Source: Candidatus Magasanikiibacteriota bacterium (GTDB lineage Bacteria; Patescibacteriota; Patescibacteriia; Magasanikbacterales; UBA922). Taken from it: a DNA stretch of 64,000 bases. The notes under the pieces were generated by a model. It made no database searches and was not told the DNA's origin. It saw only the letters and a program-made list of their open reading frames with translations. Below, piece by piece: positions 723 to 47,677 of the stretch (position 1 is the stretch's first letter; each line of letters begins with the position of its first letter). The position numbers and the translations under genes are program-made. The stretch lies in NCBI GenBank assembly GCA_049287025.1, contig JBAQFA010000009.1:24802-88801 (forward strand). The letters are read 5' to 3'.

Positions 723-1847
723 TTATTGACGAATAGGCATCACAATATACAAATACTCGTCTTTACCTTTGGGAGAAAACAAACATGGGGCGTCGCCACT
801 ATTTACTTTAAATTCTATCTCATCAGTTTCCATATGTTGGAGACCATCCAAAACATAGCGATGATTAAGTAAAATTGAATTTTCTTCGCCTTTTAGTTCA
901 ACATCAATTTCTGATGAGTGTTCACCAGTCTGAGTACTAGTAGATGAAACTCCGATTGTCCCCTCACCCACATTTAGATCAAATGAAACTGCGTTTACCC
1001 CCATAGTTGTAAAAAGACTAGCGGTTTTAATTTTATTTGTCATTTGGGCCACGGGAAAAACGGCTGTGGTTTTGAATTCACCAGGAATAATCTGGGCATA
1101 GTCTGGATATTTGCCATCAATCAATCGGGAAGTCATTTCAAAATCATCAAAGCGCAAAGCAATTTGATTTTCTGTGAGCCACAATCTTATTTTTGTTTCT
1201 CCACTCTTGGCTTTGGAAATTGTTATGAGTCTAATCATCTCATAAACTGTCCGAGCTGGTACAATAATTTTCATTTCATCACTTCCTTGTTCAATATTTA
1301 ATTTTTTTTCAGCCAAACGATAAGAATCAGTGGCTGCCATTACCAAACCTTTGTACCTATCAGCAAATAATCCAAAATAAACTCCAGCCAATTCTGGTCT
1401 GATTTCATTTTTGGCTGTGGCCACCACTACTTGACCCAAAGAATTTTTAAAATCTTCGGCATCCAAAACATAGGCATGTTGTTCTTCAATTTCTGGCATC
1501 ACTGGATATTCGTCAGCTGGTACGCCTTTTATTTTTGTGCTAGAAGAACCACAAGTAATTTTTATTTCATTTTCTACTAGTTCCATTTCTACTTGTTCGT
1601 CTGGCAAAAGATGAACAAAGTCAGTGAGAGTTTTGGCTGGCACCGTAAAACTGCCTGTATTTTCTACTTTGGCGCGCAAATTAACTTGAATGGCCATTTC
1701 CAAATTGGTTGTCATTAATTTTACTCCAGTGTCGTTTACCTGGATTAAAATATTTAACAAGATTGGTAAGTTAACTTGCTTACCCGCGACTCCACTAACC
1801 AAGTCTAGAGCATGTGATAAATTTTCTTTAGTACAAGTAAATTTCAT
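723..1847 (-). CDS. dnaN: DNA polymerase III beta sliding clamp
   Basis: About 374 aa with beta-clamp-like sequence throughout. It lies just downstream of dnaA. The start is taken at the internal MKFTC methionine. Confidence 0.9.
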   Translation of the reverse strand: MKFTCTKENLSHALDLVSGVAGKQVNLPILLNILIQVNDTGVKLMTTNLEMAIQVNLRAKVENTGSFTVPAKTLTDFVHLLPDEQVEMELVENEIKITCGSSSTKIKGVPADEYPVMPEIEEQHAYVLDAEDFKNSLGQVVVATAKNEIRPELAGVYFGLFADRYKGLVMAATDSYRLAEKKLNIEQGSDEMKIIVPARTVYEMIRLITISKAKSGETKIRLWLTENQIALRFDDFEMTSRLIDGKYPDYAQIIPGEFKTTAVFPVAQMTNKIKTASLFTTMGVNAVSFDLNVGEGTIGVSSTSTQTGEHSSEIDVELKGEENSILLNHRYVLDGLQHMETDEIEFKVNSGDAPCLFSPKGKDEYLYIVMPIRQ

Positions 1848-2144
1848 ATATTTGGACTTATGCACCTCACGTGCATTTTTTAAAATCCCCTCTGTTGTTT
1901 GTTATATATTTATATATTAAATTGATAATAGTAATAGGTGTTGTGGATAGTGTGCAAAAGTCGTTTTTTATTTTAGTTTTAGATAAATTTTGGTGTTAAT
2001 AATTTCTTAATAATTTTTTGTCTTCTTGTTGATAATTTTGGTTTTTATTTTTGCCCTGTTTATAACTCATTAATTATGAACAGTTTAAATTTTTATAATT
2101 ATATTCTTATCCCAAGCTTTATCCACCGTATTTGCAATTCTAGT

Positions 2145-3527
2145 TTAGATATTATCTACGTATAATCTTTGTTTGATCGCTTCAATTTCTTGTTTTAGTT
2201 TGGCGTCATTTTCAATCTCGGTTTTTATTTTGGTATGAGCGTGCATGGCTGTAGTGTGGTCGCGTCCGCCGAGTTCATTACCAATCGCCGGGTAAGACAT
2301 TTTTAATTCTTCACGTAGTAAGAACATAATAATTTGTCTGGGATTGGAAAGTCTTTTTTCTCGGCTCTTACCAGCAATATCATCAATCGCCACGTCATAA
2401 AATTCTGATACCACACTAGTTAACTCTTTTGGAGTAAGAGAGCGTTTCATACTTTGCGCTTCAAAACTTGATAAGACAGATTTTACGCTTTCTTTAGTTG
2501 GTTCAGTATTTTTTAATTCATGAAAAGCAATAATTTTATTTAGCGCGCCTTCTAGTTCCCGGATATTACTTTGGACAGTGGCCGCGATTAAATTTATCAG
2601 TTCATCGGACAAATTATATTTTTTCTCCTGAGCTTTTGATTTCAAAATGGCTGATCTCGTTTCCAAATCTGGCGCTGCGATATCTGCAATCATCCCCCAT
2701 TCAAATCTAGAGCGTAAACGATCTTCCAAAGCTGGGATGGCTTTTGGTGGGCGATCAGAAGTAAGCACGACTTGTTTGCCTTGTTGATGTAGTTCGTTGA
2801 AAGTGTGAAAAAATTCCTCCTGAGTTTGTTCTTTGCCACCAATGAATTGAATGTCGTCAATCAAGAGTAAATCAACATTGCGATAGCGATCTTTAAATTC
2901 TTTGGCTCGGCCTTCTTTTACTGAAGTGACAAATTCATTAGTAAATTTTTCTGAAGAAACATAGAGAATTTTTGTTTGCGGATTATTTTCTAGCATTTTG
3001 TGGCCAATCGCTTGCAGAAGATGAGTCTTGCCTAATCCGACCCCACCATAGATAAATAATGGGTTGTAGGCTTCTCCTGGTCGGTTAGCAGAGGCTTGGG
3101 CAGCAGCATGAGCGAGTTCATTGCCCTTACCAACAATAAAAGTGTCAAAAGTATATTTTATATTTAGACCAAATTTACTACCCAAAGATTGATTTTTTGG
3201 CGCCGAATAAATTGGCGTGGCTGCACTAGATACATTTGGTTCAGTGGACATGGTACATTCTTTTTCTTCAATCAATTTGGAATTTTCTACTTTATATTCT
3301 ACTTTTTTTACTGGCTTACCTGTCACTCGTTCCAAAATTTTTATAATTTCTGGATGATATTTTTTTTCCAGCCAGCTCTTGGTAAAAGTATTAGGCACAC
3401 AAATAATTACCTGACCAACTTCATATTGGCCAATACCAGTATTGCGGAACCAAGTAGTAAAATTAGCTTTGGAAACTTTTAATTCAAATTCAGCGAGAAC
3501 AGCTTGCCAGATTTCGTGATTTGTCAT
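2145..3527 (-). CDS. dnaA: Chromosomal replication initiator DnaA
   Basis: 460 aa. It has Walker A GGVGLGKTHL, the AAA+ core and a C-terminal DnaA-box binding domain (..TTAMHAHTKI..). Confidence 0.95.
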   Translation of the reverse strand: MTNHEIWQAVLAEFELKVSKANFTTWFRNTGIGQYEVGQVIICVPNTFTKSWLEKKYHPEIIKILERVTGKPVKKVEYKVENSKLIEEKECTMSTEPNVSSAATPIYSAPKNQSLGSKFGLNIKYTFDTFIVGKGNELAHAAAQASANRPGEAYNPLFIYGGVGLGKTHLLQAIGHKMLENNPQTKILYVSSEKFTNEFVTSVKEGRAKEFKDRYRNVDLLLIDDIQFIGGKEQTQEEFFHTFNELHQQGKQVVLTSDRPPKAIPALEDRLRSRFEWGMIADIAAPDLETRSAILKSKAQEKKYNLSDELINLIAATVQSNIRELEGALNKIIAFHELKNTEPTKESVKSVLSSFEAQSMKRSLTPKELTSVVSEFYDVAIDDIAGKSREKRLSNPRQIIMFLLREELKMSYPAIGNELGGRDHTTAMHAHTKIKTEIENDAKLKQEIEAIKQRLYVDNI

Positions 3528-10374: not shown

Positions 10375-12363
10375 ATGATTACGACATTGCTCGTACTTTT
10401 GCCAGCCTTGGCTGCCATACTTTATGGTGGAATTTTAATTGGCTGGATCAACAAACAGCCGGCCGGTTCAGAAAGAATGCAGGCCATTGCTAAGGCTATC
10501 CAAGAAGGCGCCAAAGCTTATCTCGGCAGACAATACAAGACTATTGCCATGGTGGCCGTAGTAGTATTTGTTTTGCTTTGGATTTTCTTAGGATTCAAAA
10601 CCGGTTTAGGTTTTGTGGTTGGGGCAACTTTTTCGGGAATTGCTGGTTATCTTGGTATGACTATTTCCGTCAAAGCCAATGTAAGGACAGCCGAAGCAGC
10701 CAAAAAAGGTTTTAAAGAAGCTTTGGACGTAGCCGTAAAAGGTGGTTCAATTACCGGCTTGTTAGTCGTGGGTTTGGGTTTGTTTGGAGTAGGAGCATTT
10801 TATTTAATTTTCAAAGATACTAATTCTTTAATTGGTTTAGCTTTTGGTGGTTCTCTAATTTCTATTTTTGCTCGTATTGGTGGCGGTATTTTTACCAAAG
10901 CCGCTGATGTTGGCGCTGACTTGGTCGGTAAAGTAGAAAAAGGTATTCCTGAAGATGATCCTCGCAATCCAGCGGTGATTGCTGATAATGTTGGCGACAA
11001 CGTCGGTGATTGTGCAGGTATGGCTGCTGACTTATTTGAAACTTATGCTGTGACAGCTGTAGCTGCTATGGTGCTTGGTGCCCTTACTTTTAAAGGTAAT
11101 GAAGAAGCAATTATTTTCCCATTAATCTTGGGTGGAATTTCTATTATTGGTTCAATCATCGGTACATTCTTTATTAGATTAGGCAAGACAAAAAATGTCA
11201 TGAATGCGCTTTATAAGGGTTTAGTTGTGTCGGGAGTTTTATCAATGATTGGTTTTTATTTTGCTAGTACAGTTTATAGTAAATATTTAAATTTAACAGT
11301 TAGTCAATTATTCTGGAGCGGTTTTATTGGTTTAGTTTTAACTGGTCTTATGGTTTGGATTACAGAGTATTATACCTCTACCAAATATGGTCCAGTAAAA
11401 AGTATTGCCAAAGCTTCTGAGACTGGTCATGGTACCAATGTGATTGCTGGTTTGGCTGTATCCATGAAAGCGACTGCTTTGCCAGTTCTATTCATTGCGG
11501 CTGCTATGCTTGGAGCTTATAGTTTGGCTGGTCTCTATGGTGTAGCTATTGCGGCTATGGCCATGTTGTCTATGACAGGAATTGTAGTGACAATTGATGC
11601 CTATGGTCCAATTACTGACAATGCTGGTGGTATTGCGGAAATGGCTGAGCTCGGTGATGAAGTGAGAGCAGTCACTGATCCATTAGATGCCGTTGGAAAT
11701 ACTACCAAAGCTGTGACAAAAGGTTATGCGATTGCCTCAGCTGCTCTGGCCGCTCTAGTTTTATTTGCCGATTACACTCACAAATTGGCTGAGAATGGTA
11801 TTTCTACAGTTTTTAGAATTGATGATCCAAAAGTTTTGGTTGGTTTGTTTATTGGTGGCTTACTGCCATATTTATTTGGTTCATTTTTAATGGAATCAGT
11901 TGGCAAGGTGGCGGGTAAAGTAGTAGAAGAAGTTCGTCGCCAGTTCAAAGAAATTGCGGGAATAATGGAAGGCAATGCCAAACCAGATTATGCCAAGTGT
12001 GTGGACATCGTAACCAAAGGAGCAATCGGTCAAATGGTTTTACCAGCTTTGATTCCAATAGTAGCACCGATTTTAGTTGGCCTAATTTTAGGACCAGCCG
12101 CTCTTGGTGGTTTATTGGTAGGTACAATCGTGACTGGTTTGTTTGTCGCAATTTCCATGACAGCGGGTGGTGGTGCTTGGGACAATGCCAAAAAATATAT
12201 TGAAAATGGTAATTACGGTGGCAAAGGATCTTTTGCTCACCAAGCGGCTGTTACAGGTGACACAGTTGGTGATCCATACAAAGATACTGCTGGTCCAGCC
12301 ATTAATCCGATGATTAAGGTGGCGAATATAGTTGCATTGTTGATTGTGGGGTTGTTGAAATAG
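10375..12363 (+). CDS. hppA: Membrane-bound H+/Na+-translocating pyrophosphatase
   Basis: 662 aa and polytopic. Diagnostic motifs [19 protein letters not shown] and [19 protein letters not shown] are present. Confidence 0.9.
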
Positions 12364-12424
12364 ACACGGATTATACGGAATTAAAGGATTATACGGAAAA
12401 TAAGAAAAATTAAAACACTCTGCT

Positions 12425-12458
12425 AAATTGGCAGGGTGTTTTTTTTGTTTAACACTTT
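12425..12458 (+). terminator. hppA terminator. Its tail is duplicated at 13731-13751 (see findings).
   Basis: CACtCTGC..GCAGGGTG stem followed by T8-G-TTT. Confidence 0.5.
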
Positions 12459-12616
12459 TTAAATCGTAAACTTGACTTATCATATAAAATATAGTATAAA
12501 TGTATGTCCGATAGACTTGTTGTCTGTCGTTTTGGTATATAAGGCAACTTTGCTTTGTTGTTGTGTGTGCTTGAGTGAACAACCATAATCCTTGGATGGG
12601 AGGTGAGACAGGGGAA

Positions 12617-13588
12617 ATGGCAAAGGATCTTTCGGAGAGAAAATTTCGAAGCACCGTGCGGTATGTGCGACGTCTATTGGGGGGTGGGACTGGTATTGTG
12701 ACTGCTCAACAGCTTCAGAAGGCTGGAAAACGAGCTCGCGGTCCTTTCTTTGACCCCAGAGACCATGGTCTGGTTCGTCCGTTCTTGGAGCGTGGAGCCG
12801 AAGAAGGACTCTGGGTGCTTGAGAACGGCGGTGGTCGGGCTGTCGTACCTGATGGTGTGTGGGAACAGTGGGATAGTCGTGGCGAGAGACGGCGTGAGGA
12901 ACGTCAGTCACAAGTTACGGCTCAAGCAGGAACCCGGCCAGCTTCAGTGCTGGCATCACTAGAGGAGGTCTCTATGACCGACGGTACGAAGAAGGGGGTG
13001 GGCGTATCCCCGAAAAATCCTATCTGGGTTTGGCTTCGGGCCAAGAAGGGTAGGTTGGGAGAGCTCATCGAGCTGTTCCAGGGGGTCCATGATGGTGCTC
13101 CGGTTCTCGCCAAGAAGGGTGGGGCTTTGAGTTTCCATTTTGCCCGCCCGCACCTAGTTCGGGGCCTGCAGAAGCTCGGGATGGAGCAGATCGACGATGG
13201 GTCAAAGATCCTGGCCACGGTCTTCTCCTACCTCGCCACGCCTGAGCAGGGGGTATTCGAGCGTGTGGGTTCTGGTGGGTACCCCCGCTACAAGCTCGGG
13301 CCGAAAGGGCAGAAGCTCTTGACCGAGGTCAGGAGCAGGGGCTCTGAGCCCATGCCACCGCCCGTTCCGTCCACGTCACCGACCGCTGCCCCCAGCCCGG
13401 GTGACCCGTTCGCCGAGGAGGAGGCCGCTCTCGTGGCCAAGCTCGAGGCGGTCCGTGCCAAACGCCGGCGCTTCATCGTGGTCGAGGACCTCGTGGTCAA
13501 GGCCATGAAGAAGGCCGGCATCGAGGGGACAGAGCAAGTTGAGTTCCTCAAGGCGCTCGTCAAAAAGCTCGGGGGTTCCTCCGAGTAG
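12617..13588 (+). CDS. Hypothetical protein encoded in a GC-rich foreign island
   Basis: About 323 aa. The segment is roughly 65-70% GC against roughly 38% in the flanks. A strong SD GGGAGGTGA precedes the ATG at 12617. The product has a basic N-terminus, a Pro/Ala-rich linker and a C-terminal helical domain. I recognise no domain. Confidence 0.5.
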   Translation: MAKDLSERKFRSTVRYVRRLLGGGTGIVTAQQLQKAGKRARGPFFDPRDHGLVRPFLERGAEEGLWVLENGGGRAVVPDGVWEQWDSRGERRREERQSQVTAQAGTRPASVLASLEEVSMTDGTKKGVGVSPKNPIWVWLRAKKGRLGELIELFQGVHDGAPVLAKKGGALSFHFARPHLVRGLQKLGMEQIDDGSKILATVFSYLATPEQGVFERVGSGGYPRYKLGPKGQKLLTEVRSRGSEPMPPPVPSTSPTAAPSPGDPFAEEEAALVAKLEAVRAKRRRFIVVEDLVVKAMKKAGIEGTEQVEFLKALVKKLGGSSE

Positions 13589-13795
13589 TCAAATCTCTAG
13601 GCAGTCTTGACTGCCTACGACATCGTTCTTTCAACCTGTCCCGTTCGGGACACCAAAGTCAGGGAAGTGAGTATCACTCCACATCGGAGCGTACCTTCCC
13701 TGGCGCTCCATCAAAAGAACATCTCTAGTTAGGTGTTTTTTTGTTTAACATTGATTTTACAGATTTTAAAAAAGATTTTATTTTATAAAAATTAT

Positions 13796-14527
13796 TTATT
13801 TCAAACTGTTCCACAACATCTCCCAAACAAGACGTTGGTTATCAGCATTGGCTTGGTCTTCAATAATGACTAGGATCATACTCTCCCAAGAAACAGTCAT
13901 TACTCGATTGCCATAAATAACAGTGTGACTTTTGAATGATTTACCTTCGGGTAAAAATTTTACTTCACGTAATTCTTCTGTGGCACGTCTAGCTTCTAAA
14001 ATACCGGATTTGGATTTTTCCACAATTATTTTTGCTTTAACCCCTAATGAAATTCGTTCGTTGGTTAATTTTTTATACTCTTCTGGAAAAGTTGTTAATA
14101 GTTTTTCTGATGAACCATATACCAAATTTTCTTTTAGATTTACTTTGTGTCTAATCCTGTCTAGATAAGCATTCCATACATTTTTTCTACCCTCAAAATA
14201 TAATACTTTTGGTTTGTTGGCACCTTTGTTTTGTAAAGCCTCAAGTTCTGGTATTAGATCAGCAAAAAGTTGCTCTTTGTAACGAAGTGAATCCAAAAAT
14301 TTTTCTGGTTCCATGGCCACAAAATATCTTTTTCTGCCTTTGTTAACCACATTCATTAAGCCTTTAAGAATTAATTTTTCTATAATGTCGTATGTAGTTA
14401 CTCTATGTATGCCGGCTTTTTGAGCAATTGTCTGGACTGAAGCATGACCAAGCTCTAAGGTGGCTAAGTAAATTTCGGCCTCTTTGGCATCTAGACCAAA
14501 TTGTTGTAATTGATTAGGTAAAATCAT
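13796..14527 (-). CDS. TrmB-family wHTH transcriptional regulator (paralog 1)
   Basis: The N-terminus FGLDAKEAEIYLATLELGHASVQTIAQKAGIHRVTTYDIIEKL is a canonical TrmB HTH. It is divergent from the ABC transporter operon. The start is chosen at MILPNQ. Confidence 0.75.
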   Translation of the reverse strand: MILPNQLQQFGLDAKEAEIYLATLELGHASVQTIAQKAGIHRVTTYDIIEKLILKGLMNVVNKGRKRYFVAMEPEKFLDSLRYKEQLFADLIPELEALQNKGANKPKVLYFEGRKNVWNAYLDRIRHKVNLKENLVYGSSEKLLTTFPEEYKKLTNERISLGVKAKIIVEKSKSGILEARRATEELREVKFLPEGKSFKSHTVIYGNRVMTVSWESMILVIIEDQANADNQRLVWEMLWNSLK

Positions 14528-14639
14528 AAAATGTTGTAGGAAAAGTTCTACATTTTTCATTATATCTATTTACAATAAATAAGTCAATCTGCTAATCTAA
14601 TGTAGTATATTATCGACATAATTAATTTAAAATAATACT

Positions 14640-23932: not shown

Positions 23933-26299
23933 TTATTTTTCTAAGACGGGGTGTTGGCCAAACTGACCACGTAGAGCCGAGACTATTTGGCCAGTATAAT
24001 CTGGATTTTTCTGAGATTGCTTTCTAAATTTGAGTGATTCTTCAATTACTTTGGTCTTTATTTTCATGGCCTTGGCAGTTTTAATGGTCCACTCGCCTTC
24101 TCCAGAATGAGATACTTTACCACTAATTTTTTCTAAATTAGTACCGTAAGTATGAAAGGCTTCATGGAGCCAACCAACCAGACGGGATTCAATTACACTA
24201 CCCTCATTATATATGTCAGCAATGCGGTGTAGATCTAGTTTATAATCAGACTTTTTTAGAACATTAAATCCCTCGCCAATGGCTTGCATCATGCCATACT
24301 CAATTCCATTGTGAATCATTTTTACAAAGTGGCCAGCACCAGCGCCAGAAAAAAACTGATAACCATTCACTTGAGACATGTCTTTAAAAATTGGTTCACA
24401 ATGTTCAAATAATTTTTTCTCCCCGCCGATCATAATGCAGGCGCCATTTCTCGCTCCACCTGGACCACCCGATACCCCAGCATCGAGAAATTTAATACCC
24501 AGCTTTTTTAATTTATTGGCTCGAACAGTCGTATCTTTAAAATATGAATTACCGCCGTCAATAATGATGTCGCCTTTATCTAATTTTTTTACTATTCCTT
24601 CTTTACCAAACAAAGTCTCATCAATTGGTTTGCCATTGGGAAGCATGAGCCAGATAATGCGTGGGCTAGGTAATTTTTTTATCATGTCTTCTAATGAATA
24701 TACCGCGTTCAAATTTTCTTTGGCCATTTGTCTGGTCACTTCAGCGGTGCGATTATAACCAACTACATACCAACCCTTGTCAATTAATCTTCTGGCAAGA
24801 TTGCCACCCATTTTTCCTAAACCAATAATACCAATGCGTTTATTTAGTTTATGTTTTTCTTCTTCTAGAAAATTTTTCGCAGTTTTCGTAATTTCAAAAG
24901 TATCTGGTTTGTAAGTATGGAGTGGAGTTAAATTATTTTTCCAAGCATTAATAATTGGATCAACCACACGCCACATTTGAGCAATTTCGGCATTTCTCAT
25001 AAACCAAGTTTGATTACCAGCAATAGTGTCATGGAGTAATTTGGCGTATTCTTCTACATAGGGCAATTTGGTTTTATTTTTATGCAACATAAAAACAAAT
25101 TCTCGTTTTTCCAATTGCATATCAAAACCAGGTTTTCTTTGCCAAAATTGAATTTTTATTTCTTGCGTGGGGTGAAGTTTAAAAATTATTTTATTTTGCA
25201 CTGGACCAGCCGGTGGGCAAATGCAGGGTTCTGGGTGGCGGAAAGTGACGACAATTTCTTTTTTCACTTGTCCCATCCGTTTGCCACTTTCAATTGTAAT
25301 GGGTACGCCAGTCCAACGCGGTGAATCAAGTTCGGTCTGCCAACGGAAATATGTTTCCACATTAGAATTTTTATTTACCCCAGTAATATTTTTATAACCA
25401 TCATATTGGGCGCGGAAAGTTTTGGTTTTTATATCTTGCAAGCTAGGTTTAATTAATTGTTTCAAAACTTCTGCCCGAGCATTGCGCACTTCTTTGTCAG
25501 TATAGTTAATTGGATGCTCCATAGTTAAGAGCGCGAGAATAGACAGCAAATGGTTTTGTCCGACATCACGCAAAGCCCCGACACTTTCATAAAACGATCC
25601 TCTGGTTTCTACTCCAATTTCCTCCCACAGTTTCATACTAATTCTTTCAATATGCTTGTTGTTCCAAGCGTTTTCAAATAAGCCATTAGAAAAACGGAAA
25701 TTTAATATTCCCTGAACCATTTCTTTACCAAAATAGTGATCAATTCTATAAATTTGTTCACGTTTAAAAACTGATAAAGTTTTTTCTAATTCTTTGGCAG
25801 AGGCACCATCATCACCAAACGGTTTTTCTACAATCACTCTAGCCCAACCAGTACTGTCATCACAGGGCAGATTTAATTTGGTTTCTTTCAATCCCTTGGC
25901 AATCGGTTTGATCATGGCTGGTGGAACAGCTAAGTAATACAATTTGTTAGCACAAATCCCCCATTGATCCTGAATATTTTGAATGTGGCTTTTTAATTCA
26001 GTATAATCTTGCAATTGGGAAAAATCGCCTTGTTCATAATGAAAGAGTTTTAAAAATTTTTCAATTGGTTGTCGGGTTTTAACAAATTCTTTTTCTTTTA
26101 AAATATTAAAAACATGGGTTCTAAATTCTTCATCACTCATTGCTCGGCGGGCAAATCCTAAGACATCAAAATGAACTGGAAGTTTTTTTTGTTTGTATAA
26201 AAAATATAATGAAGGGACAATTTTTTTTGTCATAAGGTCGCCAGTGGCACCAAAAACAGTAAAAATTGTTGGAACATTATCAAAGTATGGTTGTTTCAT
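23933..26299 (-). CDS. Fused glucose-6-phosphate dehydrogenase (N-terminal) and short-type 6-phosphogluconate dehydrogenase (C-terminal)
   Basis: The N-terminal ~480 aa carry G6PD motifs (GATGDL..K, EKPFG, RIDHYFGKE). The C-terminal ~300 aa carry GIIGLGKMGGNLARRL and a GndA-like decarboxylating 6PGDH domain. This is a single uninterrupted 788-aa ORF. Confidence 0.8.
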   Translation of the reverse strand: MKQPYFDNVPTIFTVFGATGDLMTKKIVPSLYFLYKQKKLPVHFDVLGFARRAMSDEEFRTHVFNILKEKEFVKTRQPIEKFLKLFHYEQGDFSQLQDYTELKSHIQNIQDQWGICANKLYYLAVPPAMIKPIAKGLKETKLNLPCDDSTGWARVIVEKPFGDDGASAKELEKTLSVFKREQIYRIDHYFGKEMVQGILNFRFSNGLFENAWNNKHIERISMKLWEEIGVETRGSFYESVGALRDVGQNHLLSILALLTMEHPINYTDKEVRNARAEVLKQLIKPSLQDIKTKTFRAQYDGYKNITGVNKNSNVETYFRWQTELDSPRWTGVPITIESGKRMGQVKKEIVVTFRHPEPCICPPAGPVQNKIIFKLHPTQEIKIQFWQRKPGFDMQLEKREFVFMLHKNKTKLPYVEEYAKLLHDTIAGNQTWFMRNAEIAQMWRVVDPIINAWKNNLTPLHTYKPDTFEITKTAKNFLEEEKHKLNKRIGIIGLGKMGGNLARRLIDKGWYVVGYNRTAEVTRQMAKENLNAVYSLEDMIKKLPSPRIIWLMLPNGKPIDETLFGKEGIVKKLDKGDIIIDGGNSYFKDTTVRANKLKKLGIKFLDAGVSGGPGGARNGACIMIGGEKKLFEHCEPIFKDMSQVNGYQFFSGAGAGHFVKMIHNGIEYGMMQAIGEGFNVLKKSDYKLDLHRIADIYNEGSVIESRLVGWLHEAFHTYGTNLEKISGKVSHSGEGEWTIKTAKAMKIKTKVIEESLKFRKQSQKNPDYTGQIVSALRGQFGQHPVLEK

Positions 26300-28373: not shown

Positions 28374-29123
28374 TTATTTTATCTCTGGGCAATGATCCCA
28401 CATAAATTTAAACCAGGTTTTATAGCTAGTGGCCAGTGGACGACTAATATTTACAAAAATGGTAATATCGTCACTAATCTTTGTTATTCCGGCGCCAGTA
28501 AAAGACACAACATGATCACCAAAAATGTCTACCATTGAAGGCGTAGAATATTCTTTAGGTAGGTATTTGTAAGGTTTACCTACGGCTTTTGGTACATGAG
28601 GAGCTTGTTTTAGTACTTCAAAATCAAATAAATGTTTATATTTAATACCTCGACGATCCGCATCAACTAAAAATTTATCCAAAAAGGTATTGAGTCTTGG
28701 GTCGAACCAGGCTCCCTTGGCGCCAATACAATAAACATCTTCTTTAGTAGATAATACATCACGAAGAAAATTTTTAAATCCTTCCAGACCTTTATATATG
28801 TAGGCAGCCTCTAAAACAGGATGTTTTTGGTATTCGTGCATCAAGTGTGGCATTTCTTTTTCTAGCCTAGTACGTTTTTCATCAACCAGTTCCATTAGCT
28901 TGGCTGGTTCCACTGGTTTAAATAAAGTGTCGCCATGCCCAATAACTTGAAACACTAAACCTTTTTCAATTAAGCGATTCATTGAGTCATAAATATTCCG
29001 GCGATGAATTTTACTTTTTTTTGAAATATTAGAAACCGTAGTTTGTTTTTCTTGTAAAAGTGTTTCGTAAATTTTGGCTTCGTTTATTGACAATCCTAGT
29101 TCTGTTAAAATTTGGCTATACAT
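28374..29123 (-). CDS. TrmB-family regulator paralog A. Its C-terminus is divergent or truncated.
   Basis: N-terminus LGLSINEAKIYETLLQEKQTTVSNISKKSKIHRRNIYDSMNRLIEKGLV. The Lys-rich tail seen in paralogs B and C lies after an in-frame TAA stop. The gene is immediately adjacent to tRNA-Arg. Confidence 0.7.
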   Translation of the reverse strand: MYSQILTELGLSINEAKIYETLLQEKQTTVSNISKKSKIHRRNIYDSMNRLIEKGLVFQVIGHGDTLFKPVEPAKLMELVDEKRTRLEKEMPHLMHEYQKHPVLEAAYIYKGLEGFKNFLRDVLSTKEDVYCIGAKGAWFDPRLNTFLDKFLVDADRRGIKYKHLFDFEVLKQAPHVPKAVGKPYKYLPKEYSTPSMVDIFGDHVVSFTGAGITKISDDITIFVNISRPLATSYKTWFKFMWDHCPEIK

Positions 29124-29139
29124 AGCAAAAATATATTAA

Positions 29140-29170
29140 AGTGGTGTGAAGCCACACCACGTGGTGGTAT
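29140..29170. promoter_or_regulatory. Perfect palindrome in the TrmB-A/cassette-1 divergent region. It is a candidate operator.
   Basis: TGGTGTG aagc CACACCA. Confidence 0.4.
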
Positions 29171-29296
29171 TTGCCACTCTTTATATATTATATATAATGC
29201 CTTGTTACTTTGCAAGCCGCTGCTGTGCATAAAAGCTAGATGGTGAGCGGGTAATAAGGGGTTCTTTGATAAAACAATTTGAGAAGCGAGGGACAA

Positions 29297-29479
29297 ATGG
29301 AAACTGGAGAAAGGCAAGATGAAGTTACTTGTTTGAAGAAAGAGTTGGAACATGACAAAGATGAGATATATTATTTGCGTTTGGCTATCCTTAATTTGAA
29401 TAGGAAAAAGGAGTATGTCAGAATGCAAAGGATGTTCCGTGGTGGAGAAGCTGTTCTCGACATGTGGGCGCGCTATTAA
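29297..29479 (+). CDS. GC-rich cassette 1a: small helical hypothetical protein
   Basis: About 61 aa, GC-rich, same strand as 1b. Confidence 0.35.
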   Translation: METGERQDEVTCLKKELEHDKDEIYYLRLAILNLNRKKEYVRMQRMFRGGEAVLDMWARY

Positions 29480-29515
29480 CACGGGAGAGGGCTGAAAAAG
29501 CCTAAGGAGGACCTC

Positions 29516-30103
29516 ATGCGTACAATGTTAGTCGCGTTGCTGTCGCTGGTGCTGTTTTCAAGTATTGCTCAGGCCGAAACCTACAACACCAGGTTGCTCC
29601 TGCACGGTCACAAGACCGTCGGTGAGGGATTCGGAGTCGCGGGTTGGGTGATTGCGCCCAACATCACAAGCGTACCGAACAAGTGGGTAACCCTCGTCGG
29701 CCCGTGCTACGATGGACAGGGGTGGGGTGTAGAATTGTTGGCAGGAGCGGTTGTTTCTGGTGGCGAGAGCAAGTTTCTTGTAGATGTCAGAATAACGTTC
29801 ACTCCAAAATTCTTCGGCATCCCCTTGAACACCTGGCACAACTTCCAGTGGATTCGAACCGGAGGCTCTGGCACGGGTTACTGGTATGGACAGGTTGACT
29901 GGGTGTTGCCACTCGGACTTGGACTTCTCGGTACAGAAACCGAGAACACGTTCAACGTGAGTGGCAATGACTGGTCAGTCGCGCCTCACGTCGTGATCTC
30001 TTTCGGTGATCACTTCGCGCTAGTGTTCGCTCCACAAGCTCATTTCAATGCACGTGGCTACACTGGCACGCAAGCGTGGGTTCGTACGGTCGTGAGTCAC
30101 TAG
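29516..30103 (+). CDS. GC-rich cassette 1b: secreted beta-rich protein with a signal peptide
   Basis: A strong SD AAGGAGG precedes the ATG. The signal peptide is MRTMLVALLSLVLFSSIAQA. The rest shows alternating hydrophobic Gly/Trp-rich strands, like a small OMP or beta-barrel. The segment is about 60% GC or more. Confidence 0.6.
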   Translation: MRTMLVALLSLVLFSSIAQAETYNTRLLLHGHKTVGEGFGVAGWVIAPNITSVPNKWVTLVGPCYDGQGWGVELLAGAVVSGGESKFLVDVRITFTPKFFGIPLNTWHNFQWIRTGGSGTGYWYGQVDWVLPLGLGLLGTETENTFNVSGNDWSVAPHVVISFGDHFALVFAPQAHFNARGYTGTQAWVRTVVSH

Positions 30104-30175
30104 TCGTTCTTTTATAGGGGGGAGGACTTACTTGAGACTAGTCATCTCACGTGGACCGGCACGTAAAAATCCGGG

Positions 30176-30236
30176 ATTCTAGTTAGTACTAAGTAGATAT
30201 CAAAAAACCACGCCTCATCGGCGGGTTTTTTGTTTA
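30176..30236 (+). terminator. Conserved element T1 (copy a): ATTCTAGTTAGTACTAAGTAGATA box plus an intrinsic terminator
   Basis: AAAAAACCACGCC tcatc GGCGGGTTTTTTGTTT. A near-identical copy lies at 31839-31902. Confidence 0.65.
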
Positions 30237-30254
30237 CTTTGGGTAATTTATGAT

Positions 30255-31049
30255 TTATTTTTTCTTTTTGGCAAGTTGAGAGAGTGGTACGGCCGTATTC
30301 CAAGCTAGTTCATATAGCGCTTTTAGAATTTTTACCAAAGATGTACTTTCTATCATTACACCAATTTTGTGTGGTTTATGAGTGACGAAGACAATTTTTG
30401 ATTCAAAAATATTAATTTCACCAAAAAAGTCCTCAATTCCTGGTAGTTGATTAGGTTTAAGCCATTTAATATGAGTATAAGTCATTGATCCTTTATAATT
30501 CGTCATCCAAGTTCTAGCTGTAGGTGTATCCAAAGCAATAATACGTTCATGAATTTTACGTTTACTGCGTTCACGATTATAGCCTTCACCCCAAGTTTTG
30601 AATTCCGGCCAACTCCAGCCTTCAAAATCGGCAATAGAAAGAATTTCGGTTTTTGAATCTAAGCTCTCCCAATAAATATTTTTTAAACCCTGGGTACCTT
30701 CTTGATATTTGATAACTGGCTTTTCGGCAAACTTATAAATCGAAAATAATTTTGGTAAAACTTTTTCTACATTTAATAATTTATCTTCCCATTGCTTTTT
30801 TTTGTTTTTAATATGTTGAACCAGACGCCCTGGATTTTCCGAAGTATAAATCATTTTCGATCCTTTGCCAGTCGCGCGATCTACCAAACCATACCAACCT
30901 AACTTTTCCAAAGCATAATAACCAAGCGTTCGGTTGATACCAGCTTTTTTGGTTATCTCGGCTACAGTAGCAGGACCAAGTTCGAGCAAGGCTAAATATA
31001 CTTTGCCTTCGGTTTCATCTAAACCTAATTGACTGATTAAATCTTTCAT
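30255..31049 (-). CDS. TrmB-family regulator paralog B
   Basis: N-terminus LGLDETEGKVYLALLELGPATVAEITKKAGINRTLGYYALEKLGWYGLV. The C-terminus is ..ILKALYELAWNTA..LAKKKK. Confidence 0.75.
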   Translation of the reverse strand: MKDLISQLGLDETEGKVYLALLELGPATVAEITKKAGINRTLGYYALEKLGWYGLVDRATGKGSKMIYTSENPGRLVQHIKNKKKQWEDKLLNVEKVLPKLFSIYKFAEKPVIKYQEGTQGLKNIYWESLDSKTEILSIADFEGWSWPEFKTWGEGYNRERSKRKIHERIIALDTPTARTWMTNYKGSMTYTHIKWLKPNQLPGIEDFFGEINIFESKIVFVTHKPHKIGVMIESTSLVKILKALYELAWNTAVPLSQLAKKKK

Positions 31050-31164
31050 GTTTTTATTCTACTATATATTTGGAAATGTGTCAAATCTATTTAACAGAAA
31101 ATTATTTATATAGCAAAATACTTTATAATTAGCCAAATATTAATAATTAACTAATAAAACAATA

Positions 31165-31193
31165 TTGACAGTTATTGTAAAATGTGGAATAAT
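31165..31193 (+). promoter_or_regulatory. Sigma70 promoter TTGACA-17-AATAAT for cassette 2. Palindromes lie downstream.
   Basis: The hexamers and spacing fit sigma70. GTTCTAGAAtgaaaaTTCTgGAAC and GAGTGTctgaACACTC lie between the promoter and the SD. Confidence 0.5.
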
Positions 31194-31301
31194 AAGTAGT
31201 TCTAGAATGAAAATTCTGGAACCAAATTGATTGGGAGTGTCTGAACACTCTGTATATATGGTCTGGCGTTCTTTACACACGTGCTAGTTGGAGGGAACAT
31301 C

Positions 31302-31727
31302 ATGAAAAGGTGCATCAAGGCTCCGGGAATTAACGCTTTCAGTGGCGAGGGTGAAGTGGGGAAGTTAGAAGATGTCCCCGGAAAACAAGGTTGCCTTCCA
31401 TTTGATCCTAGTCCGGCCGTAGGGGGTTGGATGAAGGACGACAATTGTAAAGTGGAGGCACCACCAGAGGGGTGCACGCTCGAAGTGCCCGAAACGATCC
31501 TATGCCCCAATGGAAAAAACATCCCAGCTGGAAAGTACAAGGTGGGAAAACTGCCTGATGACAAGATTCTGCATCGCTATCATGATCACGTTCTGCCCCT
31601 CACCGATGAGAAGGGGGTCACCCGGCATTATTGCATTGAAAGTTCCGGTAGGCATGTCGACTGGTCGGGATGCGTCTGCATCTTGATTCGTGTGGAGACG
31701 CGCGAAGAGCGACTGCTGATTCAGTAG
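31302..31727 (+). CDS. GC-rich cassette 2: Cys-rich hypothetical protein
   Basis: SD GGAGGG. About 141 aa with about 11 Cys. The segment is GC-rich. Confidence 0.5.
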   Translation: MKRCIKAPGINAFSGEGEVGKLEDVPGKQGCLPFDPSPAVGGWMKDDNCKVEAPPEGCTLEVPETILCPNGKNIPAGKYKVGKLPDDKILHRYHDHVLPLTDEKGVTRHYCIESSGRHVDWSGCVCILIRVETREERLLIQ

Positions 31728-31781
31728 CCATAAATTAAGGGGGGCAAGACGTAGTCTGGATTCGTCAACCAGTCCACCTGC

Positions 31782-31808
31782 CGGAGAGGTAGGCGTAGGC
31801 CGGCGCGT
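31782..31808 (+). repeat. Box A, GGCGTAGGCCGGCGCGTGAGCTCGGCA, copy 1
   Basis: This 27-mer appears five times in the window, always 20-60 nt downstream of a GC-rich cassette. Confidence 0.7.
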
Positions 31809-31838
31809 GAGCTCGGCACCGTGCGCCCGACACATTCA

Positions 31839-31902
31839 AAACGGGCAAATTCTAGTTAGTACTAAGTAGATAACAAAAAACCACGCCCTATCAGCGCGGT
31901 TT
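31839..31902 (+). terminator. Conserved element T1 (copy b)
   Basis: ATTCTAGTTAGTACTAAGTAGATAACAAAAAACCACGCC ctatcagc GCGGTTTTTTGTTT. Confidence 0.65.
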
Positions 31903-31928
31903 TTTGTTTGTTTTGAATAATTTATAAA

Positions 31929-32732
31929 TTATTTTTTCTTTTTACTAGTTTTAGCAAGCGGTGTAGCTGTAATCCACGCCAGTTCAAAAATCGCTTTTAA
32001 AATATTAGATAAAGCCGTGCTTTCTATAATTATGCCAATAGGGATTGGTTTCTTGAATAAAGCCATCATTACTTTATTATCATAAATATTAATTTCACCA
32101 CCTAAATCTTTGATAGTTGGTACTTGTTCGGGTTTTATCCAGCGATAATTAATATATTTTTTTGATCCTTGATAATGTTTCATCCAATCTCTTCCTTCGG
32201 GTGTATCTAAAACCAAAACGCGTTCAGAAATTTTTCTTTTACTACGTTCGCGGGTATATTCTTTGCCCCATTTAAAAAGATTAAACTCTGGTGTATACCA
32301 AGCTTGCAAATCCAAGACTGATAAAATTTCTGATTTGGCTTCTAAAGTTTCCCAATAAATATTTTTGGCACCCTCAACACCTTCTTGAAATCTAACGCTG
32401 GGTTTTTCGGCCACGGTATAGAGTAAATAAAAATCTGGCAATTGTGATTCTAATTCTTTTTCTTTTCTTTCCCAAGTATTAATTTTTGATTTTACAAAAT
32501 GTTTTAAATTTTTGGGATCTTTGGCTACAAATTGAATGCGTTTCTTTTGTCCAGAAGAACGATTGACTAGGCCAAACCAACCAAGTTTTTCTAGGGCATG
32601 ATAACAAAGGGTGTGACCAATGCCAGCTTTGCGGGCAATGGCGCTGGCGCCAGAAGGTCCAAGTTGTAAAAGGGCAATATAGACTTTGGCTTCTGTTTCT
32701 TCAAAGCCAATGCTTTTAAGAATTTCTAACAT
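31929..32732 (-). CDS. TrmB-family regulator paralog C
   Basis: N-terminus IGFEETEAKVYIALLQLGPSGASAIARKAGIGHTLCYHALEKLGWFGLV. The C-terminus is ..ILKAIFELAWITA..KKKK. Confidence 0.75.
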   Translation of the reverse strand: MLEILKSIGFEETEAKVYIALLQLGPSGASAIARKAGIGHTLCYHALEKLGWFGLVNRSSGQKKRIQFVAKDPKNLKHFVKSKINTWERKEKELESQLPDFYLLYTVAEKPSVRFQEGVEGAKNIYWETLEAKSEILSVLDLQAWYTPEFNLFKWGKEYTRERSKRKISERVLVLDTPEGRDWMKHYQGSKKYINYRWIKPEQVPTIKDLGGEINIYDNKVMMALFKKPIPIGIIIESTALSNILKAIFELAWITATPLAKTSKKKK

Positions 32733-32865
32733 AGAATTTTATTTTAGAATTTATTAGATATATTTATTATAACACAAAAATAAATTTATTTCAATATCAA
32801 ATTGAAAATAATTACTAGATTGTAAATTTTTATTTAAAATAAGCCAAAAATGGTTTATTTATTTT

Positions 32866-32895
32866 AAATTGAGTATTGACATACTCCATAATCTA
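32866..32895 (+). promoter_or_regulatory. Sigma70 promoter for the cassette 3-5 array
   Basis: TTGACA, a 17-18 bp spacer, then cATAATt. Confidence 0.5.
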
Positions 32896-32896
32896 A

Positions 32897-32963
32897 TGCA
32901 TAATTACTTGTTCTGACGATCGAGGATTGGCCTTGAGAGTTGGACGCTAACTGGGAGGGCATC
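32897..32963 (+). promoter_or_regulatory. Conserved cassette leader, CTTGTTCTGACGATCGAGGATTGGCCTTGAGAGTTGGACG, with an SD
   Basis: The same leader, 34 of 39 nt identical, follows the minus-strand array promoter at 48712-48660. Diverged copies precede cassettes 4 and 7. Confidence 0.65.
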
Positions 32964-33311
32964 ATGGCCGAAGAGCACGAGGTACGGTGTGATAACTGCG
33001 CCCACCACCACGTAGGAAGCGGGGGTTGTTTCGGCAAAGTAGAGAGCAGGTTCCCCATGTACGATTTTCATAGAGGAGTAAAATACTGCATGTGGGGGGG
33101 GACCCCCAGCCGAATTGTGACCTTTTCTAGATTGAAGGGGTGCCCGCTGGGTGTGGAGTTTGTGCCACTCCGCTGGTGTGGTACCTGTGGCAACTTGGTC
33201 CAAACGGACCAAGGGTGTGCTCACCGGTTGGAGGGTTGCGAGGACCCCAGCTACAGGTGCTGGAAGATTCACCCCGACCTCAAGGAGGGTATGAGACAAC
33301 AGTACCTCTAG
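32964..33311 (+). CDS. GC-rich cassette 3: Cys/His-rich hypothetical protein
   Basis: SD GGGAGG. About 115 aa with CxxC pairs (CDNC, CGTC). Confidence 0.5.
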   Translation: MAEEHEVRCDNCAHHHVGSGGCFGKVESRFPMYDFHRGVKYCMWGGTPSRIVTFSRLKGCPLGVEFVPLRWCGTCGNLVQTDQGCAHRLEGCEDPSYRCWKIHPDLKEGMRQQYL

Positions 33312-33334
33312 ACTACCCACCTATGGGTTAAACA

Positions 33335-33480
33335 GGCGTAGGCCGACGCGTGAGCTCGGCATTCCATTTTTGTCCAAAATATTATTTTTTGCATAAAGAT
33401 GGAGGCGCTCTTTAAAAACAAACAATCCGCACTGGTGGTGTTGGTTGAAGAGATATAGTTCTGACTTAACGGAGGCTAGA
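33335..33480 (+). repeat. Inter-cassette element R, copy 1: box A, hairpin 1, box C, hairpin 2, leader-like with SD
   Basis: Box A spans 33335-33361. Hairpin 1 is CCATTTTTG..CATAAAGATGG at 33364-33402. Box C is GCGCTCTTTAAAAACAAACAA. Hairpin 2 is CaCTGGTGGTGttG. It is more than 85% identical to copy 2 at 34177-34339. Confidence 0.7.
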
Positions 33481-34149
33481 ATGGGATACGACCCAAACCA
33501 AATGGCCCAAAGGTATTTGAGGGTCGACTGGGCCGACGTGAAGGGCTATGCCGCTTACGCGGTAGAGTCCACGTTCGGGGACCAAGTACCACCACCCATA
33601 AAAAGGAGACTCGAGGTATTGGACGGTATAAGGGACAAGGAAGGTCCCGAAGCCGCCTGTCTCGAGGCAGCAAGGATCGAATGTGAATGCCAAGTCGTTC
33701 AGGAGAAAAGAACTGAACGACGGCAGTGGAGAACGGGAGACGACCCATACAAATATGGGTCTTCGTTCTCTTCGAAGTTTGTCATCATAGATTATAATGG
33801 TGAAAAAAGATTCTACATCGCTCATAATTGGCATATGCAGGCCGTTTTCGTTTTCGCCAAAATTCTGGTGGATAGAAATAAAAAAGTCGATTTTCACGTT
33901 CTGGGTGGGGGGTGGTTCCGTGCTAATCATCCCCTAACTGTTGGCGGTTTTAGCGGTGATTTTAGCTCGTTCAAAATCTCTGACTTGAGTGAGGCGTTGG
34001 GTGGGCTTGAATTCACCGACAAAGATCCCGGTGATTGGCGCACGAATTCCATGCGTGCCACCCATATTGATTGGGCTTTTATCGAAAAAGCCCGTGACTC
34101 CTCTGAGAAATACAGGGAGGTATGGAAACGGATCTTTGAGGAGGAATAA
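33481..34149 (+). CDS. GC-rich cassette 4: hypothetical protein
   Basis: SD GGAGG 7 nt upstream of the ATG (MGYDPNQ). About 222 aa, GC-rich, no recognised domain. Confidence 0.5.
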   Translation: MGYDPNQMAQRYLRVDWADVKGYAAYAVESTFGDQVPPPIKRRLEVLDGIRDKEGPEAACLEAARIECECQVVQEKRTERRQWRTGDDPYKYGSSFSSKFVIIDYNGEKRFYIAHNWHMQAVFVFAKILVDRNKKVDFHVLGGGWFRANHPLTVGGFSGDFSSFKISDLSEALGGLEFTDKDPGDWRTNSMRATHIDWAFIEKARDSSEKYREVWKRIFEEE

Positions 34150-34176
34150 TAGACGTAATCTGATTTCGTCAATCAG

Positions 34177-34339
34177 CGTAGGCCGGCGCGTTAGCTCGGC
34201 ATTCCATCTTTGTATAAAAATAATTTTATATAAAGATGGTTGTCGCTCTTTAAAAACAAACAACTAACACTGGTGGTGTTGGTTGGTGATATATAAAAAG
34301 GACTGGTGGCGGACACAACCCTTGGAGAAGGAGTTGAAA
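34177..34339 (+). repeat. Inter-cassette element R, copy 2
   Basis: Box A spans 34177-34202. Hairpin 1 is the perfect palindrome CCATCTTTGTATAAAAATAATTTTATATAAAGATGG at 34205-34240. Box C, hairpin 2 (CAACtAACACtggtgGTGTTgGTTG) and the SD GAAGGAG follow. Confidence 0.7.
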
Positions 34340-34759: not shown

Positions 34760-34799
34760 TTTGGGGAGGGAAAGACGAAGCTTGGGATTTGTCACCCAA

Positions 34800-34890: not shown

Positions 34891-34897
34891 AAAATAG

Positions 34898-34926: not shown

Positions 34927-34959
34927 ATATAATATATTATAAACTATATACTATAAACT

Positions 34960-47656: not shown

Positions 47657-47677
47657 CGTTTGTCGACAAGTCGAGAT

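Follow-up and report, generated by a model that had tools for sequence, protein, structure and literature searches.

Phage morons are units with a promoter and a terminator of their own and with a deviant GC content, which lie between genes that are adjacent in related genomes; they are known from phages such as HK97 and HK022 (PMC3594210). A unit of comparable design is described here from the chromosome of a Candidatus Magasanikiibacteriota bacterium, a low-GC, ultra-small member of the Candidate Phyla Radiation (CPR). It lies in a stretch of 64,000 nucleotides (assembly GCA_049287025.1, contig JBAQFA010000009.1, positions 24,802 to 88,801), referred to below as the window and numbered from its first nucleotide, where an island of GC-rich DNA with one open reading frame (ORF) stands between hppA and a gene of the TrmB family. 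With a probability of roughly 0.6, this island is a moron-like, self-contained and exchangeable GC-rich one-gene cassette. Like the phage morons, it is an independent unit with its own predicted promoter and terminator, its GC content deviates (58.7% against 36%), the genes on either side of it lie next to each other in the closest genome found (L006), and the cargo is varied and mostly of unknown function.

Unlike the phage morons, the island is situated outside any phage or prophage. Its neighbours are dnaN, dnaA, a comM-like gene, a LysM-M23 gene, hppA, an ABC operon, ftsK and recA, and neither PHROGs nor the phage collection gave a match. The compositional shift is extreme and upward (59% against 36%), and the CPR units share a 5' leader and modules of the 3' untranslated region (UTR) and terminator across genomes, and occupy fixed loci (between rpiB and ileS, and after hppA).

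The CPR units also resemble the cassettes of integrons. They are small and mostly single-gene, carry orphan cargo, stand singly or in same-strand tandem (as in contig L005 and at 32.9-34.9 kb of the window), and each ends in a conserved hairpin element; relatives differ in cargo at the same site. In contrast to integron cassettes, each has its own promoter, and the end hairpin is the ordinary terminator design of the lineage. No IntI-type or tyrosine recombinase was found in Pfam scans of 33 window ORFs or next to the arrays examined, the only recombinase among the scanned ORFs being a large serine recombinase 45 kb from the island. By inspection, the attC core order (RYYYAAC ... GTTRRRY) is reversed in the island, where GTTAGGT (13728-13734) comes before GTTTAAC (13743-13749). 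An integron cassette was rejected on these grounds: there is neither attC core organisation nor IntI or attI, and an own promoter is present. A transposon or insertion sequence was also rejected, the single ORF coding for a predicted winged-helix protein and not for a transposase; the only end-to-end inverted repeat of the island is an AT-rich 24-mer of 75% complementarity, which is not convincing.

Minimal mobile elements, or hypervariable islets, which are exchanged by transformation and flanking homology, have been described in Neisseria. The CPR cassettes are like them in the varied cargo between conserved flanks, in having no recombinase of their own and in belonging to a plausibly competent group. 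They differ in that leader, 3' UTR and terminator travel with the cargo between loci and genomes, and in that the cargo pool has its own base composition.

The GC content of the window is 36.1% overall and 58.7% at positions 12563-13731; no other 1.17-kb stretch of the window is as rich in GC (0.589, the mean being 0.361 and the S. D. 0.046, a difference of about five standard deviations). It peaks at 69.5% at 13300-13499. The sharp island reported in the first-pass annotation, which had been read from the sequence and its ORFs, is therefore borne out, and the 70% that it counted for 13321-13380 is exact (70.0%). Its estimate of about 65-70% for 12.48-13.72 kb was too high, as this span has 57.1% and its first ~100 bp about 29%; the promoter and leader stretch (12459-12562) has only 28.8%. 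The single long plus-strand ORF was correctly recognised, as were the long ORFs in other frames, which appear spurious, being produced by the high GC of the island.

An assembly artefact can be dismissed, and the island is real: the window is matched at 100% identity by a second NCBI metagenome-assembled genome (MAG) and by two Logan assemblies, and contig L003 covers both junctions, also at 100%. That it represents a chimeric MAG contig, or the gene of a GC-rich structured RNA, is extremely improbable. Such an explanation could call upon the break of two assemblies where the GC begins to rise on the left (12524-12582), and upon the long ORFs that high GC yields in several frames, but it is contradicted by the contig that spans both junctions, by the occurrence of the same cassette architecture in independent JGI, ENA and NCBI assemblies, by protein homology of E = 1.9e-23, by a codon-position GC typical of coding sequence, and by the lack of any match to an Rfam family. 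Rfam scans of the whole window at gathering thresholds gave only tRNAs and chance matches, as did permissive scans of 12300-13900 and 29000-35000. As to the breaks themselves, the contigs of GCA_049304355.1 stop at 12524 and resume at 12582, and one Logan contig begins at 12567. They fall on the AT-to-GC transition at the left edge of the cassette, and could be a coverage artefact or reflect strain or population heterogeneity there.

Exchange of the cassette is suggested by comparison of the hppA locus in related genomes. L006 (Candidatus Magasanikbacteria UBA11710), found via a search with the adjacent TrmB protein, is the closest genome found; its flanking DNA is 84-87% identical to that of the window (hppA 86.8%), and its HppA and TrmB proteins are 95.8% and 94% identical. 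According to tblastn, it keeps the order LysM-M23/hppA/TrmB/ABC. The stop codons of hppA and TrmB are separated by 87 bp with one shared bidirectional terminator and no island, which is the direct adjacency of hppA and the TrmB/ABC genes that the first-pass annotation had named as a point to check in relatives. Another genome, L007 (TrmB 67% identical), was dropped as an informative relative, since it is not syntenic.

A metagenome contig, L014 (identical to L010), provides the third state of the locus. Its HppA is 88% identical, and the nucleotide identity from hppA through the terminator is 78.7%. Homology between the hppA terminators of the window and L014 extends as far as the T-run, while this terminator is absent from L006. 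The cargo that follows hppA in L014 is an ORF of 216 aa with ~50% GC, whose product is rich in Cys and begins with a hydrophobic segment at the N-terminus. The end of the 3' UTR and the terminator of the window cassette (13637-13746) are 85.6% identical to L014 3575-3682, the differences lying in loops, and ~25 nt past this shared 3' end are also common to both. The locus is thus empty in L006, holds one cargo in the window and another in L014. No ortholog of the window ORF occupies this position in L006 or L014, which is in keeping with an insertion.

The coordinates of the features are collected in Table 1. Its parts would make the island a complete autonomous transcription unit with its own predicted promoter, leader, ORF, 3' UTR and terminator. 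Upstream, the hppA terminator folds at -18.5 kcal/mol (z = -4.5). Directly after the hppA stop there is also a 13-nt perfect direct repeat, GGATTATACGGAA, in two copies 18 nt apart (12368-12398), which is retained in L006 and partly in L014. The homologous cassettes of L005, L036 and L044 have TTGACA promoters, to which that of the window cassette can be aligned; the window promoter is not listed by the promoter scan, which demands T at position 6 of the -10 hexamer. Transcription is predicted to start near 12507. The leader is of the type GTCCGAYAG...GTCGTTTTG, in which GTCGTTTTG (12526-12534) is invariant in four cassettes of four genomes (window, L005, L036 and L044) and stands at a fixed distance from the -35 box.

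Table 1. Features of the island after hppA and of the TrmB-linked cassettes in the window
Feature	Position	Strand	Basis or remark
Window DNA without counterpart in L006, ~1.36 kb	12410..13773	.	blastn and pairwise alignments; bounds +/- 10 bp
hppA intrinsic terminator	12412..12454	+	14-bp A/U-extended hairpin at 12412-12442, then T-run and tail
Promoter, sigma70-like, TTGACT-17 nt-TATAAA	12472..12500	+	read from sequence; 29% GC stretch
5'-terminal stem-loop CGAUAGAC-UUGUU-GUCUGUCG, then UUUUG	12509..12534	+	fold, alignment; stem-loop proper 12509-12529, starts at ~+1
ORF, 323 aa	12617..13588	+	in-frame alternative starts GTG 12575, ATG 12596
Conserved domain, ~118 aa (ORF residues 125-245)	12989..13351	+	phmmer, HMM iterations, AlphaFold2
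Proline-rich linker, then three predicted helices (C-terminal tail)	13352..13585	+	alignment, AlphaFold2
Structured 3' UTR	13589..13711	+	fold; hairpins 13600-13615 and 13638-13651, plus long hairpin
Cassette terminator	13712..13750	+	13-bp hairpin CAAAAGAACAUCU-CUAGUU-AGGUGUUUUUUUG (13712-13743) and tail
Short AT-rich stretch ATTGATTTTAC...TTTAAAAAA	13751..13775	+	common to L014, absent in L006
TrmB-family gene	13796-14560	-	downstream of island, convergent with it
TrmB paralogs	28374-29123, 30255-31049, 31929-32732, 48975-49763		divergent from GC-rich cassette groups
CGTAGGCCGGCGCGTGAGCTCGGCA copies	31794, 33337, 34177, 34800	+	motif matches
CGTAGGCCGGCGCGTGAGCTCGGCA copy	47677	-	motif match
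TrmB-linked leader copy	32895-32945	+
TrmB-linked leader copies	48690-48745, 48255-48300	-

The ORF appears to consist of two parts. An internal ATG at 12974, 7 nt behind a very strong Shine-Dalgarno (SD) sequence GAGGAGG (12962-12968), would give the 204-aa product of the NCBI annotation, which is the core with the best support, while the Logan gene call for the ORF has 330 aa. GC contents at codon positions 1/2/3 are.73/.52/.44 in the upstream 119 codons (12617-12973) and.66/.45/.78 in the 204-aa part (12974-13585), against a third-position value (GC3) of.25-.30 in host genes. Both parts look coding yet differ in composition, and homologs are known for the 204-aa part alone.

The 3' UTR is rich in hairpins, as had been noted in the first pass, with three GC hairpins in all, and the fold of 13606-13755 has z = -4.65. 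In the long hairpin, CAGGGAAG (13660-13667) pairs with CTTCCCTG (13695-13702), and an overlapping pair, GGAGCG (13686-13691) and CGCTCC (13704-13709), interlocks with this stem. The interlocked stems (13660-13709) could form an H-type pseudoknot or alternative folds. All four interlocking arms are the same in L014, the differences being held in the loops. The sequence ATCTCTAG does occur at both ends of the 3' UTR, as pointed out earlier (13593-13600 and 13721-13728), but, because it has not been kept in the corresponding 3' UTR of L014, the doubling is probably due to chance. In L014, the counterpart of the stretch at 13751-13775 holds the -35 box of the next transcription unit, and this stretch may be a leftover of a neighbouring unit.

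Two copies of a short sequence, each with an extra G before it, bound the unit: GTG-T8-GTTTAACA at 12436-12454 and GTG-T7-GTTTAACA at 13733-13750. Their existence had been observed correctly. The left copy (12435-12454 with the extra G) sits within the hppA terminator. The right copy (13732-13750) was said to have no preceding stem, which is wrong, as it lies within the terminator of the cassette itself and forms the 3' arm of the 13-bp hairpin CAAAAGAACAUCU/AGGUGUUUUUUUG (-12.2 kcal/mol).

In the first-pass annotation, this repeat was regarded as a 19-bp target duplication. Under this explanation, the cassette entered at a staggered cut in the hppA terminator tail, duplicating 19-20 bp of GGTG-T7/8-GTTTAACA, and the unoccupied hppA terminator tail of a relative would read ...GGTG-T7/8-GTTTAACATTGATTTT. 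Such an event must be considered unlikely. The unit is indeed bounded exactly by the two copies, and their identity begins at GGTG whereas the 5' stem halves differ; moreover, cassette 2 of L005 is also found between identical 19-mers, GTGTTTTTTTGTTGTAAAT. However, GGTG-T7-GT is generic in the lineage. The window has 19 copies of T6GTTT, where 3.2 would be expected, GGTG-T7-GTTT also closes the native ABC operon at 17164, and GGTG-T7-GT is found behind tRNA genes in metagenome contigs. Because this hairpin arm recurs at the ends of a native operon, of tRNA genes and of low-GC genes, it represents a terminator design typical of the lineage, and the doubt raised in the first pass itself, that the motif might be a generic terminator tail, is largely borne out. 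Thirteen or more of the repeat bases belong to the generic arm, and TTAACA alone is non-generic. This part remains unusual: TTAACA follows both window terminators, whereas the 6-mer that follows is shared in just 1 of 496 pairs among 32 distinct comparable terminators. Together with the 19-mers of L005, it would speak for some mechanistic link.

Several other observations argue against the duplication. The right copy is part of the conserved terminator of the cassette family, being homologous to cassette ends in L005 (three copies, a 54-nt repeat family), L004 and L014; in L014 there is no flanking identity past GGTG-T7. The 19-mers of L005 are accounted for by the two ends of its cassette 2, which are paralogous over 54 nt. 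Both copies in the window are inside the DNA that L006 is missing (12410-13773), in place of which L006 has 22 unrelated bases, and its unoccupied site has a different terminator. Neither a transposase nor convincing terminal inverted repeats accompany the unit. Transposition with duplication of 19 bp of target is less likely than recombination in shared ends.

The product of the ORF has no match in Pfam, PHROGs, NCBIfam or PADLOC, and to this extent the earlier statement that it has no recognisable domain is correct; it does contain, however, a conserved domain of ~118 aa with a predicted winged-helix fold. Word-indexed protein searches with the ORF and with the domain profile, in an index that is too coarse for the purpose, returned the ORF itself only. 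In an exhaustive search with phmmer, just two relatives were found among 1.84 billion representative proteins, P0003 (E = 1.9e-23) and P0004 (E = 5.6e-16), both matching ORF residues 116-321 only. P0003 is a fragment on L004, a 778-bp contig of 63% GC whose end is a cassette-type 3' sequence, and P0004 is a 626-aa protein with an N-terminal sigma factor of the extracytoplasmic function (ECF) type from a Candidatus Parcubacteria MAG. Local HMM iterations on the cargo ORFs of the metagenome loci added L042, with two copies of the domain, and L022. The window ORF fits the family of P0003, P0004, L022 and L042, in which the ~118-aa domain is followed by a Pro-rich linker and C-terminal helices; by eye, the linker-plus-helices layout is also present in cargo proteins of L022, L042, L020, L036 and L044.

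AlphaFold2 with a 3-sequence alignment modelled the domain at a predicted local distance difference test score (pLDDT) of 82-91, the single-sequence model being poor (pLDDT 49). The best Foldseek matches in PDB (MukF/E, Cdt1, TubR, RosR, MarR, PadR and STIV F93) are all winged-helix proteins, none of them significant (E >= 0.014), and no significant match came from comparing the profile with the sequences in PDB. From fold and architecture alone, the ORF product would be a DNA-binding transcription regulator, probably oligomeric, in which the helical tail may serve oligomerisation. The N-terminal 119 aa were considered as an internal copy of the domain, but no such relation is detectable (hhalign probability 0.1). 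In the relatives P0004, L036 and L044, the protein begins with Sigma70_r2 and r4_2, followed by the domain found in the window ORF. This arrangement is like that of ECF sigma factors with C-terminal extensions; unlike these, the window protein has no sigma domain, and the C-terminal winged helix, Pro-rich linker and helices match no Pfam or NCBIfam family.

The family is rare, and all the members found come from CPR or CPR-like contigs, where they lie in GC-rich islands. The description of the ORF as foreign agrees with its composition, but no donor among high-GC taxa was found, and the relatives occur only in other CPR islands. An ordinary one-off transfer from a high-GC bacterium, such as the host of the epibiont, into the intergenic region is quite improbable. 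It would be in keeping with the high GC3 of the conserved ORF part (0.78, host genes having 0.25-0.30), and with the homolog on L004, a contig of 63% GC over 778 bp. Nevertheless, only three of the 1.84 billion proteins give a match, P0004 comes from a Parcubacteria contig that is low in GC outside the island, L004 bears the same cassette-type 3' end, and the AT-rich promoter-leader and terminator are conserved between genomes. In addition, tblastn with the ORF gave no match in the phage and plasmid collections.

Cassettes of this kind extend well beyond the window. P0004 is encoded in an island of 4 kb that has 58-60% GC, whereas its contig has 37-40%. Three tandem units make up this island, and in each a GC-rich ORF stands behind an AT-rich TTGAC promoter and is followed by a GC hairpin and the same terminator. 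The terminator pattern CAAAANNACATC-N8-9-GGTGTTTTTTTGT has 41 matches in public metagenomes, some of them behind tRNA genes and some behind low-GC genes, and, by inspection, the inner stem shows complementary changes across these loci. Over the 150 bp ahead of the terminator, GC is at least 50% in 26 of the 41 loci, two of these 26 being tRNA genes. GC profiles were drawn for 22 of these loci, and many of them showed a discrete island, 0.5-2.5 kb long, that stops precisely at the terminator while the contig has 30-45% GC. Two hairpins are common to the 3' ends, first a GC stem and then an A/U terminator, and the stem sequences vary between loci yet stay complementary (by inspection). Another contig bearing the terminator pattern, L030, has 65% GC and resembles an unrelated high-GC organism or an unresolved array. 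DNA scans of viral contigs gave two chance terminators and zero copies of the 25-mer of the TrmB-linked cassettes described below.

A conserved hot spot is found divergent from rpiB and, where the sequence reaches, ahead of the ileS leader. It is occupied by the islands of L005, L044/L012, L036, L022 and L020, and carries one to three cassettes in at least four different CPR genomes (for example, L005 5690-10590 and L022 5070-7310). The cargo includes fusions of ECF sigma and winged-helix domains of 588-825 aa and a very divergent protein like methylthioadenosine phosphorylase (MTAP). The best non-self matches of this MTAP-like cargo in L005 have 38-39% identity, the named ones being from Chloroflexota, and no recent high-GC donor is visible among them. 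Directly after the cassette stop, a strong SD and a conserved mini-ORF are present at L005 8203-8240 and 9361-9400 and at L004 678-720, with the products MARSPPM*, MAREPPK* and MRARAPPV*; the mini-ORF could be a small peptide gene or a translation-coupled regulatory element.

At this hot spot, the flanks of L005 and L044/L012 are 79% identical and the cargo cannot be aligned. L005 and L044 are 88% identical in RpiB and 34% in the sigma fusions, while L005 and L036 are 60% identical in RpiB and 49% in the sigma fusions. Because the similarity of the sigma fusions conflicts with that of RpiB, these values indicate that cargo was exchanged and did not merely diverge in place.

The same data bear on an explanation in which L006 lost an ancestral cassette locus and in which long-term resident genes, not imported ones, diverge very fast, for example by GC-biased hypermutation or gene conversion within the transcribed region. 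This would suit the position of the high GC, which starts just past the promoter and 5' hairpin and ends ahead of the terminator, the recurrence of islands at conserved loci (beside rpiB in five contigs and after hppA in two lineages), the orphan or very divergent nature of the cargo, and the different GC3 of the two halves of the ORF. It is unlikely all the same. The cargo proteins of the window and L014 are unrelated, which points to replacement and not to divergence, and the sigma fusions and RpiB disagree as described above. Moreover, the window ORF is at hppA while its relatives are at rpiB, and there is no strand-asymmetric depletion of bases.

The window contains seven more GC-rich ORF units, at 29400-30240, 31200-31915 and 32870-34890 on the plus strand and at 47610-48760 on the minus strand. 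These seven have 43-57% GC and GC3 values of.51-.69, and each group stands behind an AT-rich TTGACA promoter, divergent from a low-GC TrmB paralog. Their cargo consists of orphans, save for a weak match to a receiver domain and a zinc-ribbon match. A 25-nt motif, CGTAGGCCGGCGCGTGAGCTCGGCA (CGTAGGCCGG...CTCGGCA), occurs five times in the window against zero expected, always shortly past a cassette stop. In three copies (31.76, 34.16 and 34.78 kb) there is a hairpin just upstream whose stems differ but remain complementary (CUGAUU..AAUCAG, UUGGG..CCCAA). A degenerate form, GTAGCCGA..TCGGCA, is found in the metagenome cassettes L016, L024 and L028. The motif has no Rfam match. The TrmB-linked 5' leader, TTCTGAC(G/A)ATCGAGGAT...CCT(C/T)GA(A/G)AGTTGGAC, contains a small hairpin and is unlike that of the island.

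In the first pass, the island was thought to be a solitary cassette of the same mobile kind. Its architecture (a GC-rich ORF, an AT-rich sigma70 promoter, and a GC hairpin with terminator) and its composition agree with this, as does TCTAGTTAG before the terminator, which is common to the island and two TrmB-linked cassettes (three occurrences against 0.3 expected, all at cassette ends). On the other hand, the 25-mer is absent from the island even with up to 3 mismatches, the leader motif TTCTGACGATCGAGGAT..CCTCGAAAGTTGGAC is absent by inspection, and there is no divergent TrmB gene upstream, where hppA lies on the same strand. A TrmB paralog is indeed present immediately downstream, but not as in the cassette modules, which have TrmB upstream and divergent. 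The link of this TrmB gene to the island is coincidental to judge from gene order, for the gene belongs to the low-GC ABC operon, with which it is also paired in L006 in the absence of the island. Since the metagenome cassettes mix elements of both module types, the island and the TrmB-linked cassettes are therefore treated as one superfamily with two sub-types.

If the island is an exchangeable cassette, it would have been moved or swapped as a block from promoter to terminator. The likely route would be uptake of DNA, which then recombined within or beside the end modules that the cassettes have in common and the terminator hairpins, and the cassettes would constitute a gene pool of distinct composition that passes between CPR bacteria. 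In one CPR lineage, the Saccharibacteria, natural transformation with homologous recombination has been demonstrated, and com genes are conserved across CPR (PMC10633639). The window itself codes for RecA and a ComM-like protein.

A more far-reaching proposal is that the CPR (Magasanikiibacteriota/Parcubacteria) keep a dedicated, horizontally exchanged pool of promoter-to-terminator cassettes with portable leader and hairpin adapters, which a trans-acting recombination system inserts at terminator hairpins or swaps between them. The identical 19-20-nt arms around single cassettes in the window and in L005 would then be a scar, and the GC content, with GC3 in the pool of up to 0.78 against 0.27 in the host, would come from an unsampled vehicle or a functional need. 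This proposal is speculative and on balance rather unlikely.

Some points weigh against the exchangeable cassette. L014, although the more distant of the two relatives, agrees with the window in its hppA terminator and in having a cassette, and for this reason the loss of an ancestral cassette locus from L006 is as parsimonious as two separate gains. L006 also has 22 nt of its own that lack a counterpart in the window. The TTAACA match, with a chance probability of ~0.2%, is not accounted for by simple homologous exchange. Promoter, transcription start and terminator are sequence predictions, and the N-terminal 119 aa have no homologs and are unannotated by NCBI. The fold was assigned from a 3-sequence alignment and non-significant Foldseek matches. 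Finally, mobility is deduced from comparisons, no recombinase, circular junction or polymorphic read having been seen.

As for the wider setting, dnaN and dnaA are at 723-3527, and the region adjoins the likely origin of chromosomal replication. The large serine recombinase (58805-60442; Resolvase, Recombinase and Zn-ribbon domains, XisF/CcrB-like) adjoins a tRNA-Pro/Phe/Ala cluster, with tRNAs at 60423-60698, and may mark the edge of an integrated element. A 788-aa ORF on the minus strand (23933-26299) fuses glucose-6-phosphate dehydrogenase and 6-phosphogluconate dehydrogenase domains.

Very little is known about the gain and exchange of genes in the reduced genomes of the CPR/Patescibacteria. 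The single locus at hppA allows a clean three-way comparison (no cassette, one cargo, another cargo), from which dozens of units of this kind were traced in public metagenomes. The GC-rich, self-expressed, orphan-rich cassettes with shared end modules and fixed chromosomal hot spots are apparently an undescribed class, and no description of GC-rich cassettes in CPR genomes was found in the limited collection of literature searched. Such islets are easily taken for contamination or chimeras in the curation of MAGs. A gene pool of 55-65% GC within genomes of 36-40% GC is also a puzzle. If confirmed, the cassettes would offer a new handle on gene flow in the CPR, and would be a source of CPR-specific regulators, namely winged-helix proteins and ECF-sigma fusions.

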